32,000 nucleotides of DNA, taken from positions 1,370,654 to 1,402,653 of the forward strand of contig NC_020449.1 in NCBI RefSeq assembly GCF_000146065.2, given 5' to 3'. Source of the DNA: Candidatus Cloacimonas acidaminovorans str. Evry (GTDB lineage: Bacteria > Cloacimonadota > Cloacimonadia > Cloacimonadales > Cloacimonadaceae). A model generated the notes under the pieces. That model ran no database searches. It saw only the letters and a program-made list of their open reading frames with translations, and had not been told where the DNA came from. Below are positions 14,692 to 23,870 of this stretch, in pieces. The translations under genes were made by a program, and so were the position numbers. Position 1 is the first letter of the stretch; each line of letters starts with the position of its first letter.

Positions 14692-15792
14692 ATGAAAAAA
14701 GTAATACTAATTTCGGGTATTCTATTCTTTTCCACCCTGTTATTTGCCCAATCCACCTTTTTTTGGATTGAAGATGTTCCCTGGGATGATGGAAAGGCGC
14801 TAAACATTAAAGCAAATGTTCCTGCCGATACTGTCTATCTGCAAAAAGCTTTGGAAGATGGAACCTGGGAAACAATTTACACCGGTAGAGGAAGGTCTCT
14901 TTCCTTTACGCAAAATGAACTCAATCCTGATATTAAATACAGATACCGTTTGCTGGTTCCGCGTCCTGCATTTAATGATACCATATTTTTTATGGCAGAA
15001 GCTCAACCAAAGGAACAATGGTTCTATCTGCACAAGCTTTCCTATCTTTTAATTCTGCTTGCTGTTTCCATTGCTATTATCTATTATGTACAAAATGCTC
15101 GCAAAGGAAAGGAATATTATATTCGCAGGATTAGCGGTCTGGATTGTATTGAGGATTCCATTGGCAGGGCTACGGAAAAAGGAAAACCCATTCTTTTTGT
15201 TCCCGGAATTATGGATTTGGATGATATTCAAACTATTTCCAGTTTAACCATCTTAAGCCATTTGGCTCATAAAGCGGCGGAATATGATACGGAAATAATT
15301 GTTCCCTGCAGGTTTTCTATGGTTTTATCCGCTGCCCGAGAAGTAGTAAAAGAAGCATATATCAAAGCTGAAAAGCCCGATGCTTACAATCAGGATAGGA
15401 TTTTTTACTTAACCGATGATCAATTTGGTTATGTAGCAGGAATTGATGGAATTATGGTACGCGAACAGCCAGCAGCCAATTTTTTCCTCGGAAGTTTTTA
15501 TGCCGAATCCTTAATTTTAGCTGAAACCGGTTTTAGTACAGGCGCAATTCAAACGGCTGGAACCGCTCAGGCAAGTCAATTACCCTTTTTTGTGGTCTCT
15601 TGTGATTACACTTTGATTGGAGAAGAACTTTTTGCCGCTTCCGCTTATCTTTCGCGTGATCCGCAACAGCTGGGTTCTTTAAAGGGTCATGATTTCGGTA
15701 AACTTTTAGTAATTCTATTAATTATAGCTGGAGTAATAACAGAAATGTCTGGCTGGCATTGGTTTAAAGCATTTTTTGAGGGGGCACAATGA
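14692..15792 (+). CDS. Uncharacterised envelope protein: signal peptide, beta-rich N-terminal domain, TM helix, soluble domain, C-terminal TM helix
   Basis: Track ORF 14626..15792. The in-frame ATG at 14692 follows aaaggaag and gives the signal peptide MKKVILISGILFFSTLLFAQ. The C-terminal half resembles the protein at 16484..17314. Confidence 0.6.
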   Translation: MKKVILISGILFFSTLLFAQSTFFWIEDVPWDDGKALNIKANVPADTVYLQKALEDGTWETIYTGRGRSLSFTQNELNPDIKYRYRLLVPRPAFNDTIFFMAEAQPKEQWFYLHKLSYLLILLAVSIAIIYYVQNARKGKEYYIRRISGLDCIEDSIGRATEKGKPILFVPGIMDLDDIQTISSLTILSHLAHKAAEYDTEIIVPCRFSMVLSAAREVVKEAYIKAEKPDAYNQDRIFYLTDDQFGYVAGIDGIMVREQPAANFFLGSFYAESLILAETGFSTGAIQTAGTAQASQLPFFVVSCDYTLIGEELFAASAYLSRDPQQLGSLKGHDFGKLLVILLIIAGVITEMSGWHWFKAFFEGAQ

Positions 15793-18717: not shown

Positions 18718-18985
18718 AAAAAATAGAACGCAGATAACTGGATCAACAGGATCAGCTGGATTTTGAGAATGACTAATAGAACACAGATAACTGGATCAAC
18801 TGGATCATCAGGATTTTATGCTTGTTATAGTGTAAAACATCTTGAATTAAAATCCCTTAAATCATGATAATCCTGTTCATCCCAGACCTATTGTATCTGC
18901 GTAATCTGCGTAATCTGCGTTATCTGCGTGCTCTTTATTTTACTCAGTGTCCTCAGTGTCCTAAGTGTCTTCAGTGGTTATTTTT
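18718..18985. repeat. Mosaic intergenic repeat region A: aatagaacRcagataactggatca... x2, a unique ~50-bp core, (atctgcgtN)x4, (ctcagtgtN)x4
   Basis: Short 8-10-nt tandem words are visible. The core plus ctgcgt array (18852-18941) is nearly identical to 23752-23832. Confidence 0.85.
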
Positions 18986-19159: not shown

Positions 19160-19283
19160 CTACAAACACGGAAGCCAATGTTGTTATTGCTGTTAGTAGC
19201 ACTATTGTTGTTCCGATTCGAAACAGTGCAATTGCTGGCATTGTTGTTCCAGCTGCCGCCACGTTTCACACGGTTGGTTCCGC
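19160..19283 (-). other. DGR template repeat (TR), encoding ...SGTNRVKRGGSWNNNASNCTVSNRNNNSATNSNNNIGFRVC in the target frame
   Basis: It aligns without gaps to 21406-21529 (offset 2246). The sequence is rich in AAC/AAT codons. The upstream boundary may extend to about 19290. It overlaps the last 18 nt plus the stop codon of the RT gene. Confidence 0.9.
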
Positions 19284-20297
19284 TTTATGAACTCCACCCC
19301 AAATTAACTTTTGTAAATAATATGTATTGGCAAAACTAATAAAACCAAGGCGACTTCTTGTGCTTTGATAAAGTTTCTCTATTTCAATTTTACCTCTAAT
19401 ATATTCTTTTTCCCTTTTTTGCATATTTTGTAAACACCTTTTCAAATTTATATTACTAACTCTTATCAATTTTGGAAAAACACGGTAACCTAAAAAAGGA
19501 ATACCTTGGTTAACTTTATTCATTTGTATTGACTTGTCTTTTATTTTCAATTTTAGGATATTAGATAAAAAATATTTTATTAAAAGAAGATCACTTTTAA
19601 GCTTATCTTTGTTCTCCGAAAATAGAATAAAATCATCCATATATCTTACATATCCCTTATATCCAAGATTTTGCTTAATATAATGATCAAGCTGATTAAG
19701 GTAAATATTGGCAAAAAATTGGGAAGTTAAATTACCCACTGGTAATCCAATTTCCTCATTATGATTCATACTTAGGTTCTGATTTTTAAGGATAATAGAA
19801 CATAGATTAATTATCATAGGATCTTTAATTTTACTAGATATTAATTTCAATAAAATATTATGATCTATGTTGTTAAAGAACTTCTCAATATCCAGTTTCA
19901 AAAACCAAGGGTACTGCCGGGAATATTTTTGAACTGCTAATACAGCTAAATGCAAACCCTTACCTTTACGAGTGGCATAAGAATCCTTAATAAAAATGCT
20001 TTCAAAATAAGGTTCTATAACATTTATTAGAGAATGATGCACTAATCTGTCTCTAAAAACAGCAACGCTAATCAAACGTTCCTTAGGTTCCTTAATAGTA
20101 AAGTATCTATAGGGTTGAGGACGATAGTTTCCATTAATTAATTCCTTTTGTAATTCCCATAAATTTTTCTCACAATAAAACATCCATTCTGCTGTTTCAT
20201 ACTTACTCTTTTTATGCTTACAAGCATTTTTATAAGCTAAATACAGATTCTGCCAGGAGGTTAATTTTTCCCAAAGATATCCAACCCGTTTAGGCAC
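19266..20297 (-). CDS. DGR reverse transcriptase
   Basis: The 343-aa protein has ISVAVFRDRLVHHSLINVIEP, LDIEKFFNNIDH and the DGR-typical LPVGNLTSQFFANIYLN. The catalytic motif is YVRYMDDFILF. It has no maturase/X or endonuclease domain, and its size is typical of DGR RTs. Confidence 0.93.
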   Translation of the reverse strand: MPKRVGYLWEKLTSWQNLYLAYKNACKHKKSKYETAEWMFYCEKNLWELQKELINGNYRPQPYRYFTIKEPKERLISVAVFRDRLVHHSLINVIEPYFESIFIKDSYATRKGKGLHLAVLAVQKYSRQYPWFLKLDIEKFFNNIDHNILLKLISSKIKDPMIINLCSIILKNQNLSMNHNEEIGLPVGNLTSQFFANIYLNQLDHYIKQNLGYKGYVRYMDDFILFSENKDKLKSDLLLIKYFLSNILKLKIKDKSIQMNKVNQGIPFLGYRVFPKLIRVSNINLKRCLQNMQKREKEYIRGKIEIEKLYQSTRSRLGFISFANTYYLQKLIWGGVHKAEPTV

Positions 20298-20622
20298 TTT
20301 TTAACCAACCCCCCACCATTTTACCACTTTCCAGTAATTCCTTGCTAATGTATTGATATTGATTTTCAGCTAATAATTTCATCTTATAAGCCATCTGGAT
20401 TAATGTTCTTAATACATCCAACTTTATGTTTATCTTTATCAAATATTCCCTTTTTGACGAACTGTAAATCGTTTGAACAATTAATTCCAATATCTCTAAA
20501 CAAAGGTTGTCCATTTTTTGAGCTAATGAATATCTCAAATTTTTCGGAAATCTTTCCGTTCTCCCAAATATCCAGATAGATATATCCATCCATTTTATAT
20601 ATAAAGGATAGTCATTTTTCAA
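20290..20622 (-). CDS. avd: Avd (accessory variability determinant), four-helix-bundle protein
   Basis: The 110-aa protein contains YPLYIKWMDISIWIFGRTERFPKNLRYSLAQKMDNLCLEILELIV, matching the Avd / 23S-rRNA-IVS four-helix-bundle family pattern. It overlaps the RT start by 8 nt. Confidence 0.85.
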   Translation of the reverse strand: MKNDYPLYIKWMDISIWIFGRTERFPKNLRYSLAQKMDNLCLEILELIVQTIYSSSKREYLIKINIKLDVLRTLIQMAYKMKLLAENQYQYISKELLESGKMVGGWLKSA

Positions 20623-21052
20623 TTTCTAATACCGCCTCTTGTAATAATTTGATTATCTGTTCCCCATACTTTTCCGCTTTACTCTTCATCCCTTTTATAG
20701 AAGAAAAATCACTAATAGTTTTGGGTTGTTTTTTCACAATCTCATAAATCTGGGAATTATACATAATAATATAAGCAGGAAAGCCCTCATTGGCAGCTAA
20801 TTCATTACGCCAATCCCTTAATTTTTCATATTGAGCTTGTTCCAATTCACTTAAACTTTCCATATCAGGTATAAAATGACTCCCCTTTCTTGGTAAATAC
20901 TCTATAAAAAAAGAATAATAGATATTCCCTTCGTTATTGATAAATTCTTTTTCTACGCGAATTATATTATTATTCTGACAAAATTGATTGAATCCCTGAT
21001 CTTCAAAAACTCCTTTGTCTCTGTCAAATCTTACTAACATCAATTTAAACAT
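20612..21052 (-). CDS. HRDC-domain DGR accessory protein
   Basis: In the 146-aa protein, the C-terminal ~75 aa (QYEKLRDWRNELAANEGFPAYIIMYNSQIYEIVKKQPKTISDFSSIKGMKSKAEKYGEQII) fit the HRDC helical pattern. It overlaps the avd start by 11 nt. Confidence 0.7.
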   Translation of the reverse strand: MFKLMLVRFDRDKGVFEDQGFNQFCQNNNIIRVEKEFINNEGNIYYSFFIEYLPRKGSHFIPDMESLSELEQAQYEKLRDWRNELAANEGFPAYIIMYNSQIYEIVKKQPKTISDFSSIKGMKSKAEKYGEQIIKLLQEAVLEIEK

Positions 21053-21270: not shown

Positions 21271-21308
21271 TGAAAAAAAAATTTCAGCAGGGGGATATAT
21301 CCCCCTGC
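21271..21308 (-). terminator. Rho-independent terminator of the target-gene transcript, a GC-rich palindromic hairpin
   Basis: gcagggggatatatccccctgc (21287-21308) forms a 9-bp stem with a tata loop. On the minus strand it is followed by tgaaa and then T9 (plus-strand A run 21273-21281). It lies about 100 nt downstream of the VR. Confidence 0.75.
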
Positions 21309-21405
21309 ACCCCCTATCAATTCTTCTCTTCTTAATTCTTTCATTTTGGTTCTTACTTGGCAAAAGGCAAAAAGGTAAAAAAGCAAAAATCAATCAAGGG
21401 AAACC

Positions 21406-21529
21406 CTACAAACACGGAAGCCAAAGTCGTTACTGCTGTAAGTAGCACTATCGTAGTTGCGAACCGAAACAGTGCAATTGCTGGCATTGTAGTACCAGCT
21501 GCCGCCACGTCACACACGGCCGGCCCCGC
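21406..21529 (-). other. DGR variable repeat (VR), encoding ...SGAGRV*RGGSWYYNASNCTVSVRNYDSATYSSNDFGFRVC
   Basis: It differs from the TR at 17 of 124 positions. Sixteen are at TR coding-strand A and one is a synonymous CGG to CGC change. It contains an in-frame TGA at 21510-21512. Confidence 0.9.
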
Positions 21530-22478
21530 TTGTTGATCCGGTTGGATTGGTTTGAGGTCCTGAAGGATAACTTCCATAAATATCCCAACAACATTCCCAA
21601 ACATTTCCACTCATATCAAAAATTTGTAACTCATTAGCTTGTTTACCCCCTACAGGATGAGTAGTGCTACCGGAATTGCCGGTATACCAGGCAACATCTC
21701 CTACAGTATTACTCCCGCTATAGGTATAATTATGAGTTGAGTTTCCACCCCGGGCAGCAAACATCCATTCCATTTCAGTTGGTAAACGATAGCCATTAGC
21801 AGTCCAGTTACAACTGACATTAGTATGATTTTCACTATTTGTATTCCAGCCGGAGGGCCAGTTACTGGGATTGGTGCCATAATTTTGATAACTGTAACAG
21901 GGAGTAAGATTTTCCTGCATACTTCTCCGGTTACAATATTCAATGGCATTGAACCAAGTTACTCTCTCCACAGGCCTACTAAGATCACCGGTAAAATTAG
22001 AGGGATTTGTTCCCATTACTGCTTGATATTCACCTTGAGTAATTTCATTTTTATCAAGATAAAATGTGCTAATGGTTACATCTGAAGTGCCGTTATTAAA
22101 GGTTCCTCCTGTTACTGTAATAAACCCTACCGGTTGAGTGCTTGGAGAGGGATTATCGCGGGCAATTAATTTAATCTTGTAATTAGTGCCGGTACTCATT
22201 CCATCTTGTACTGGATACCAGGTTATCTGTTTTCCTGTTCCTGCACTAACACTATTACCAATAGCACCTGAGGTATGAGTTGGTGAAAATGTGTAGCTTA
22301 AGCCACCATTATTGGAAACCAACATAATCACTTGGCAGTTTTCATCAGCAGAAAGATCATAAGAAATAGTAACATATCCTGTATGAGTTGTTACGGATAC
22401 ATTACTAACAGTTGGAGCCGCGGAAAAAAGTATTCCCCAGAAAAATACGGCTAAAATAGTAATCAGAATTTGTTTCAT
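21510..22478 (-). CDS. DGR target: secreted FGE-sulfatase / C-type-lectin-fold protein, as sequenced truncated by a TGA inside the VR (the frame continues to a second stop at 21390-21392)
   Basis: The 322-aa protein has a signal peptide MKQILITILAVFFWGILFSA, an Ig-like domain and FGE-family motifs (VTGGTFNNG, PVERVTWFNAIEYCN, YRLPTEMEWMFAARGG). Past the TGA the same frame reads RGGSW...GFRVCRVSLD for 39 more codons. Confidence 0.85.
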   Translation of the reverse strand: MKQILITILAVFFWGILFSAAPTVSNVSVTTHTGYVTISYDLSADENCQVIMLVSNNGGLSYTFSPTHTSGAIGNSVSAGTGKQITWYPVQDGMSTGTNYKIKLIARDNPSPSTQPVGFITVTGGTFNNGTSDVTISTFYLDKNEITQGEYQAVMGTNPSNFTGDLSRPVERVTWFNAIEYCNRRSMQENLTPCYSYQNYGTNPSNWPSGWNTNSENHTNVSCNWTANGYRLPTEMEWMFAARGGNSTHNYTYSGSNTVGDVAWYTGNSGSTTHPVGGKQANELQIFDMSGNVWECCWDIYGSYPSGPQTNPTGSTSGAGRV

Positions 22479-22489
22479 TTTTGTTCTCC

Positions 22490-23323
22490 TTATTTCATTA
22501 GTATCATTTTGGCGATATAGTTTGTTTTGTTAGTTGTTAAGCGGAAAAAGTAAAGTCCACTGGTGCAAGTAATGCCATTTTGATTTTTCCCGTCCCAAAA
22601 GTATTTGTAACGACCTGCTGATTGGTTAGGGATTACTTTATTCCACACAATCTGACCTTTCAGATTAAATATTTCCAGTATCGCCTTACTTTCTTCGGCA
22701 AGAGAATAACTTAGCCAGGTGCCAGGATTAAAAGGATTAGGATAAATACTGTCAATCCCTGTTATCAGAGGAATTTCATCATTTCCTTCCGGTATAATAA
22801 CATTGACGCTAATGGGTCCCTTAAACTGAGAAACACTATTAATATCAATCATTTCCAGCCAGTAATAGTAAATACCGGGACTATAGATTTCTGCATCTAC
22901 ATAAACATAGACCTGCATTTGAGAGGTATTGGTAGCATTAATCAAGATATTTAACATCTGAGCTTGAGACAATTCTTCATTGGTTGACCTATAAATACGA
23001 TAACCATATAAATTGGTCTCGGATTGAGTAGCCCACATTAAACGGACACTACTCCCTCCACTTTGCTCAGCTATAAAACTGGATAGCTCTACCGGAAGTG
23101 TCTCATCTGTAATCGCAAATTCATTTGATTCCCCGCTTCCACTAAGATGTTGACAGGGTATCCCAGTAATTGAAACTACACTTGATTCGCCTAAACCGGA
23201 TAAATGCTGACAGGGTATTCCAGTAATTGAAACTACACTTGATTCACCATAGCCGGTAAGAGCAAAGATACTTCCGCTAATAAGCAAGATTATAAGGAAG
23301 ATACTTTCTTTTTTCATAGCCAT
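22490..23323 (-). CDS. Secreted protein with a T9SS-type (Por_Secre_tail / FlgD-Ig-like) C-terminal sorting domain
   Basis: The 277-aa protein has a signal peptide and the C-terminus IYPNPFNPGTWLSYSL...LEIFNLKGQIV...YFWDGKNQNG...SGLYFFRL. It ends 11 nt upstream of the DGR target gene, so the two are probably co-transcribed. Confidence 0.75.
   Translation of the reverse strand: MAMKKESIFLIILLISGSIFALTGYGESSVVSITGIPCQHLSGLGESSVVSITGIPCQHLSGSGESNEFAITDETLPVELSSFIAEQSGGSSVRLMWATQSETNLYGYRIYRSTNEELSQAQMLNILINATNTSQMQVYVYVDAEIYSPGIYYYWLEMIDINSVSQFKGPISVNVIIPEGNDEIPLITGIDSIYPNPFNPGTWLSYSLAEESKAILEIFNLKGQIVWNKVIPNQSAGRYKYFWDGKNQNGITCTSGLYFFRLTTNKTNYIAKMILMK
23151..23264. repeat. 57-bp in-frame tandem duplication inside the T9SS-domain gene (19-aa unit GESSVVSITGIPCQHLSGx)
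   Basis: tgacagggtatYccagtaattgaaactacacttgattc occurs at 23151 and at 23208. Confidence 0.85.
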
Positions 23324-23452: not shown

Positions 23453-23570
23453 GAAATTATAACAAATAGTTGTATATCTCATATTTATTCAAGAAGTTAC
23501 TAATGTTGATAAATTTCCACAATACCCTAAAAAATATTTTTTCTACCAAAGAGAAAAGCGGAAAAAGAGA

Positions 23571-23870
23571 AAAAATAGAACACAGATAACTGGATCAGCT
23601 GGATTTTATATTATATAAGAATAATTATAAGTAAAAATCTGCGTTATCTGCGTTATCTGCGTGCTCTTATTTTTCTCGGTGTTCTCGGTGTACTCAGTGT
23701 CTTCTGTGTTCTCGGTGTAAAAAATAAAATCTGGATGAACTAAAATCTTTTATCCCTTAAATCCTGATAATCCTGTTCATCCCAGACCTATTGTATCTGC
23801 GAAATCTGCGTTATCTGCGTGCTCTTATTTTTTATCCGTGTTCTTATTTAATCTGTGGAATCTGTGAGAG
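23571..23870. repeat. Mosaic intergenic repeat region B, with the same modules as region A
   Basis: aatagaacacagataactggatcagctggatttt is at 23574-23607. (atctgcgtt)n gctcttattttt occurs at 23637-23672 and again at 23795-23832. (ctcggtgtN)n is at 23674-23718. The core cccttaaatcctgataatcctgttcatcccagacctattgt is at 23754-23794. Confidence 0.85.

Follow-up and report, generated by a model that had tools for sequence, protein, structure and literature searches.

In the diversity-generating retroelement (DGR) of Bordetella phage BPP-1 (Mtd/bRT/Avd), adenine-specific retrohoming with Avd as a partner passes information from an invariant template repeat (TR) to a variable repeat (VR) at the 3′ end of the target gene. 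The DGR literature has stated repeatedly that natural TRs place their adenines so that mutagenesis gives no nonsense codons, and published DGR work has found that AAA codons engineered into TRs often yield stops. For the TvpA-type TRs of Treponema denticola, in which Lys codons are hypervaried, the authors noted that this stop-avoidance argument is inapplicable. Here we describe a complete DGR on the minus strand of a 32,000-nt stretch of the chromosome of Candidatus Cloacimonas acidaminovorans str. Evry (NC_020449.1, positions 1,370,654 to 1,402,653; hereafter the window), in which a natural TR carries AAA and the VR of the target gene carries an in-frame TGA in its place. We consider this probably a genuine nonsense allele, written by an ordinary and active TvpA-type DGR and reversible in principle. 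The element shares with the T. denticola DGR (TvpA; Protein Data Bank entry 2Y3C) a target of the FGE-sulfatase/C-type-lectin type, a VR at its extreme C-terminus with the signature GRVxRGGSW...GFR, and a TR combining hypervaried Lys and Asn codons. An HRDC accessory gene is shared with the HRDC-containing ‘Architecture C’ (Wu et al. 2018), and the adenine specificity, the invariant TR, the 3′-terminal VR and the Avd partner are shared with BPP-1, whose engineered AAA-containing TRs likewise yield stop codons.

On the minus strand, the VR (21406-21536; repeat family D5) reads ...GGC CGT GTG TGA CGT GGC GGC AGC TGG TAC TAC..., with TGA at 21512-21510, and the TR (19160-19290) reads ...AAC CGT GTG AAA CGT GGC GGC AGC TGG AAC AAC..., with AAA at 19266-19264. 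The two codons differ by an A→T and an A→G change, both at TR adenines. Over the 126-nt homology block the repeats differ at 17 positions, 16 of them TR adenines and one a TR guanine (CGG→CGC). Adenine-site differences are found on both flanks of the stop codon, 5′ (AA→GG twice) as well as 3′, and the codon therefore lies inside the mutagenised segment. As read from the translation, no codon of the TR in the target frame other than AAA can be converted to a stop by adenine changes. The called open reading frame (ORF; 21510-22478, minus strand) encodes 322 aa and ends ...SGAGRV, and the frame beyond it remains open for exactly 39 codons (RGGSWYYNASNCTVSVRNYDSATYSSNDFGFRVCRVSLD; RGGSWYY...GFRVCRVSLD) to a TGA at 21390-21392. 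A first-pass annotation of this DNA had reported the in-frame pairing of AAA with TGA, the adenine origin of both differences as a signature of DGR homing, and the 39-codon open frame after SGAGRV, and each of these stands with every coordinate correct. Separately, the single non-adenine position recurs: a TR guanine 5′ of an AAC codon (TR CGG) is changed in two independent haplotypes, to CGC in the window (~21463) and to CGT in locus L002.

TGA is a true stop in this organism. The 30 well-packed ORFs of the window end in TAA (17), TGA (11) or TAG (2), and no in-frame TGA occurs in their 8,926 codons, compared with 202 and 347 in the off-frames. Among the TGA-ended ORFs are the ATGA-overlapped genes at 15789, 16484 and 17311 and the reverse transcriptase (RT) gene, and under code 11 the housekeeping genes ([FeFe] hydrogenase, NuoF-like, GlnRS, DnaX, PFK and GDH) fill their Pfam profiles end to end. 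The window holds no tRNA genes and no Rfam match to a selenocysteine insertion sequence (SECIS)-like RNA, and the hairpin 11 nt 3′ of the UGA, with a G-less CUACAA loop, does not exceed shuffled sequence in stability (z = -1.1) and does not resemble a SECIS element. On these codon statistics, tRNA and SECIS negatives, together with the Pfam-complete TGA-ended ORFs, we rejected recoding, whether by code 4/25 or by selenocysteine; the first-pass annotation had likewise treated TGA as a genuine stop. The proposal that a selenocysteine or a Trp/Gly recoding allows the full-length protein to be made is thus extremely improbable, since the 11 TGA-ended ORFs with full profiles and the absence of in-frame TGA largely refute efficient decoding. 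UGA is the leakiest of the stop codons, and UGA-C is a weak termination context in Escherichia coli. Trace read-through of UGA-C by tRNA-Trp is conceivable, and its product could be tolerable, as family member P0089 has Trp at this codon position (RVWRGGSW).

The same codon is hypervariable among near-identical strains. We compared the window with 30-odd loci from single-cell genomes, metagenome-assembled genomes and digester metagenomes that are ~99% identical to it; among public assemblies, 128 indexed blocks hold the RT protein in identical form. The TR shows no difference among the 21 loci in which it is present, while the VR occurs as 17 distinct haplotypes at the DNA level and as 27 at the protein level when cluster members are added (19 of 117 inspected). 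Of the changes counted across the 17 DNA haplotypes, 295 are at adenines and 9 at other bases of the TR. Divergence from the window amounts to 107-180 per kb within the VR and to 0-8 per kb in the sequence around it; L018, for instance, has 26 differences in the VR and 1 in 6.4 kb outside, and L012 has 20 and 0. This DGR is active in nature. At the position of the stop, the DNA haplotypes read TTA (four), CTA (three), GGA and GTA (two each), and ATA, AGG, AGA, ACT and TTT (one each), with TGA in the window only. The 27 protein haplotypes carry Leu (nine), Gly and Val (four each), Ile (three), Arg (two), Ala, Glu, Phe and Thr (one each) and one stop, and never Lys. The comparison with related genomes that had been suggested thus leaves the window as the only copy with a stop: every other haplotype has a sense codon, and all other target copies inspected are 362-363 aa long. 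With the codon hypervariable over an unchanging AAA, the claim that adenine mutagenesis wrote the TGA and cut the target ahead of its variable end is upheld. An exact look-up of the 322-aa product in assemblies returned nothing beyond the reference genome. Pattern scans returned one locus in genome contigs and three in metagenome contigs, and a second cluster listing and an Avd look-up gave no further haplotypes.

Some VR haplotypes are nevertheless stable across samples despite the active DGR: one (CTA, ...RVLRGGSWYNVASYC...) is unchanged in L002, L005, L007, L021, L023, L036, L037 and L045, which include single-cell genomes and several independent metagenomes. The RT ORF is shortened in two loci, L024 (3756-4661; a 1-nt deletion near codon 301) and L044 (2432-3349; a 305-aa call); either these DGRs are inactivated or the assemblies are in error.

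The 322-aa product is identical to CAO81066.1/WP_015424924.1 of the 2,246,820-bp record. It comprises a signal peptide, an N-terminal β-sandwich and an FGE-sulfatase/C-type-lectin domain from which the final ~35 residues are missing. PF03781 (FGE-sulfatase; E=4.4e-35) matches residues 121-357 of the read-through protein, and positions 7-254 of the 255-position profile are covered only by reading through the stop. The closest solved structure is T. denticola TvpA (E=1.5e-43). In the alignment, the stop coincides with the Leu of the TvpA sequence GRVLRGGSW, and the 39 orphaned residues (21390-21509 with the natural TGA) align to TvpA ~258-292, the C-terminus that forms its variable region. The truncation therefore removes the entire variable ligand-binding surface together with the last conserved GFR strand, and by homology the product is a predicted loss-of-function allele. 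The RefSeq/UniProt entry WP_015424924.1/B0VEV3 (322 aa) is therefore a truncated and misnamed DGR target: UniRef100_B0VEV3 bears the name ‘Transcriptional regulator (Enhancement of xylanase A production) (Modular protein)’, which is wrong for the secreted variable protein of a DGR. Outside the VR, the normally invariant Trp of the conserved GNVWEW is replaced in the window (GNVWEC; TGT, 21591-21593; residue 296, W296C). The same replacement occurs in L010/P0121, P0127, P0132, P0133 and P0136, which makes it a real sub-lineage polymorphism.

Two diverged sister lineages with the same cassette architecture, L027 (target 77% identical) and L028/L029 (67%), also have AAA at this position of the TR; their own VRs read AGA and GTA at the equivalent codon. 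Synonymous positions flanking AAA have drifted between the lineages (GTG/GTT, CGT/CGC, GGC/GGT). The test of AAA conservation is limited to these three lineages because six more distant target homologues (P0005, P0029, P0031, P0035, P0050 and P0078) are orphan targets with no adjacent RT or TR. The loci of distant homologues, L025 (135-1235) and L030-L035, have no HRDC, Avd, RT or TR nearby, although some still follow a T9SS-tailed (type IX secretion system) gene, and are orphan or remote targets; the motif in P0005 is RVCCGGSW. The first-pass view that an AAA inside the mutagenised segment is unusual holds for DGRs in general but not for the TvpA-type sub-family, in which Lys codons are documented and this AAA has been kept in two sister lineages.

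A stop at this codon is also what mutation would be expected to produce from time to time. The pooled spectrum at TR adenines (A.58, G.21, T.18, C.03) predicts, under neutrality, ~10.5% stops per rewrite of AAA, and one stop in 17-27 haplotypes is therefore unremarkable and says nothing for or against purging. The second A of the codon (21511 in the VR, 19265 in the TR) is retained in 0 of the 17 DNA haplotypes and in a single Glu among the 27 protein haplotypes, while adenines overall are retained at 58%. As this base is almost never retained, the templated Lys appears to be disfavoured at this structural position, and any fit allele would have to be mutated at the second A.

These observations suggest the following course of events. 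The TR holds one stop-capable codon, at x of the conserved RVxRGGSW motif, and during mutagenic retrohoming the RT would misincorporate opposite TR adenines. In the molecule captured in the reference genome, AAA would have been rewritten to TGA, so that the secreted C-type-lectin-fold target would end at residue 322 with its variable binding surface gone. A later homing event could overwrite the stop, because the RT, bAvd, HRDC, the TR, the RT-14 RNA and the VR 3′ end have all stayed intact; strains with other VRs carry an RT identical to that of the window. The knockout is most simply a by-product of the TR codon and not a regulated switch. It had been suggested that the stop is either a reversible OFF variant or one haplotype captured in the assembly. 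The two are compatible and both are likely true, although nothing indicates that the OFF state is programmed or selected. The source of the reference genome was a large-insert metagenome library of a natural population, sequenced by the Sanger method, and the reference VR therefore represents one or a few clones. Several points weigh against this account. The truncated product is confined to the reference genome, whose assembly drew on a heterogeneous population. The frequency of the stop allele is judged from the 19 of 117 cluster members. The estimate of ~10% stops may be too high, given that biases of the BPP-1 bRT cut the AAA-to-stop rate to ~1%. Finally, the loss of function is predicted from homology; an AlphaFold model of the full-length target was too poor to use (48-sequence alignment; pLDDT 54 overall and <50 over the lectin domain).

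The allele could in principle have arisen without DGR mutagenesis, or not exist as a molecule at all. In a library from a mixed population, the consensus might be a mosaic of reads, with T from a TTA allele and GA from a GGA or AGA allele, or might contain a base-call error. All three of these alleles are present in related strains, and the exact window haplotype was found nowhere else. Such a chimeric junction would have to hit this single codon within ~126 nt, and elsewhere in the VR the differences are cleanly of the adenine type (16 of the 17); true DGR-written stops, moreover, are expected at a few percent to ~10%, far above consensus error rates. We therefore regard an artefact as quite unlikely. 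It is very unlikely that TGA arose by a spontaneous G→T change in a GGA (Gly) allele of a decaying pseudogene. This idea draws on L010/P0121 and P0136, which share with the window a rare 5′ VR state (GGCCGG, ‘SGAGRV’) and W296C, and on the L010 codon, which differs from that of the window only by G for T (GGA vs TGA). The VR of the window otherwise differs from that of L010 at many adenine sites, which points to homing since their divergence, and the two differ by ~2 per kb outside the VR and 107 per kb inside it. P0136 has Leu with the same 5′ state, which shows that the codon is rewritten independently while the 5′ edge stays; nor is there the surplus of non-adenine changes that decay would give (1 in 85 sites). 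The pattern in L010/P0121 and P0136 fits partial homing, in which the codon would be rewritten and the 5′ edge kept.

A different question is whether the stop is produced to some purpose. AAA might be selected in the TR as a programmed stochastic ON/OFF switch, by which homing would silence the surface protein in a fixed fraction of events and restore it in later ones; the DGR would then drive phase variation, for example in escape from a phage or predator that uses the target protein. The codon has been conserved in both sister lineages while neighbouring synonymous positions changed, and a single third-position change from A to C or T, which would remove the risk of a stop, is absent. The lack of Lys among 27 haplotypes suggests that it is not the amino acid encoded by AAA that holds the codon in place, and the intact machinery would make the state reversible. 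These three lineages, however, have a recent common ancestry, and their conservation of AAA is at most suggestive; in two of the three, the first A of AAA doubles as the last base of the RT stop. One stop allele in 27 haplotypes does not exceed the expectation from mutation alone, every other assembly is ON, and Lys codons in TvpA-type TRs have been reported without any such function being proposed. Overall we consider such a switch unlikely. The conservation of AAA in the sister lineages also leaves room for a selected gate, in which unmutated cDNA would give the disfavoured Lys, a fixed fraction of cDNAs the reversible OFF stop, and only second-adenine mutants a functional protein. We give this version equally little credence; were it true, the DGR would serve as a stochastic phase-variation device for a surface receptor in addition to its role as a diversifier.

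A nonsense allele written by the DGR remains the reading we prefer, and the rest of the cassette is that of an ordinary DGR. Its genes, all on the minus strand, run in the order target-HRDC-bAvd-RT-TR-RT-14 RNA. Ahead of the target, in every lineage, lies the gene for a T9SS-tailed secreted protein (22490-23323) with a C-terminal sorting domain (Por_Secre_tail/FlgD_ig). The HRDC gene (20612-21052; PF00570, E=2e-17) is kept in all related loci, and is followed by bAvd (20290-20622; PF22296, E=3e-18) and the 343-aa RT (19266-20297; RVT_1, PF00078, E=2.6e-26). The translated RT has the DGR-clade motifs VGNLTSQFF (GNLTSQ) and YMDDF (YMDD); the SQ dipeptide is a hallmark of DGR RTs within the motif (I/L)GxxxSQ (DGR literature). 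The RT clade, the TR/VR adenine pattern, the target fold with its 3′ VR, the Avd and HRDC genes and the ongoing diversification are all those of a DGR. The final codons and TGA stop of the RT lie within the TR: the ORF extends ~8 codons into it (19266-19290), and its stop (19266-19268) shares one A with the AAA codon at 19264-19266. The overlap is the same in L028, and in L027 the RT stops earlier, by TAA.

Directly 3′ of the TR lies an RT-14 RNA motif (Rfam RF02921; 19014-19155; 59.4 bits against a gathering score of 48.1), which by analogy to the priming spacer is probably part of the DGR RNA. A full-length copy occupies the same position in every lineage examined (L004 4305-4446, L015 4898-5039, L027 7297-7437 and L028 6719-6864), and in RT-then-TR architectures RT-14 RNA may supply the spacer or the priming portion of the DGR RNA. 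The VR and TR part immediately after their shared 3′ anchor, GGCTTCCGTGTTTGTAG, and ~100 nt further downstream of the VR a GC-rich 9-bp hairpin is followed by a T-run (21287-21308), which is probably the target-gene terminator. There is no second VR in the window, where GGCTTCCGTGTTTGTAG occurs only in the TR and VR (0.03 chance matches expected). A query of viral contigs with the RT gave no match, and we rejected a phage origin, as the PHROGs and Pfam results are those of a cellular chromosome (hydrogenase, GlnRS, DnaX, PFK, GDH). Two ~250-nt direct-repeat blocks (18722-18985 and 23565-23841) flank the whole cassette and the T9SS-tailed gene. They consist of 9-nt periodic arrays (AACTGGATC, ATCTGCGTA, CTCAGTGTC/TTCTCGGTG) and may mark an insertion or belong to a repeat family dispersed between genes. 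The spacer between the RT and the aldolase gene differs in length among relatives (e.g. L008 and L009 vs L001).

The Cloacimonas DGR had already been catalogued, through its RT (GI 218961492), in the DiGReF 2012 supplement, without remark. In the literature we found no report of a nonsense codon written naturally by a DGR into the VR of an element that is otherwise active, although the nonsense outcome follows directly from the known mechanism and the mechanism itself is not new. The locus is useful as an annotation correction and as a clean natural counter-example, in a widely used reference genome, to stop-avoiding TRs, combining a conserved TR, a demonstrably active system, one stop-capable codon and one captured allele with the stop. 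In addition, public digester metagenomes of nearly clonal strains offer a test bed for how often a DGR knocks out its own target and how fast selection or re-homing removes such alleles.

Compared with the TvpA system, the Cloacimonas cassette adds bAvd, has the order target-HRDC-avd-RT-TR, in which the RT ORF ends within the TR, and serves a single target beside a T9SS-tailed protein; its host belongs to the Cloacimonadota, and its reference copy carries a DGR-written stop. The natural BPP-1 TR consists of AAC/AAY codons from which no stop can arise, whereas the natural Cloacimonas TR retains AAA, and stops in the BPP-1 system were seen in a reporter, whereas this one lies in a natural genome. 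Premature stops and truncated targets have been met in DGR surveys (DiGReF 2012; Wu 2018; Nimkulrat 2016), where they were usually filtered out. Those stops lay in the RT or came about by decay or frameshift, in contrast to the present stop at a TR-adenine codon of an otherwise intact and active element. As in classical phase variation by slipped-strand repeats or invertible elements, a surface-protein gene would be turned off here by a local, reversible hypermutation change; unlike those systems, ‘reversion’ in Cloacimonas would give a new variant instead of the old allele, and the OFF state would be a minority by-product of diversification.

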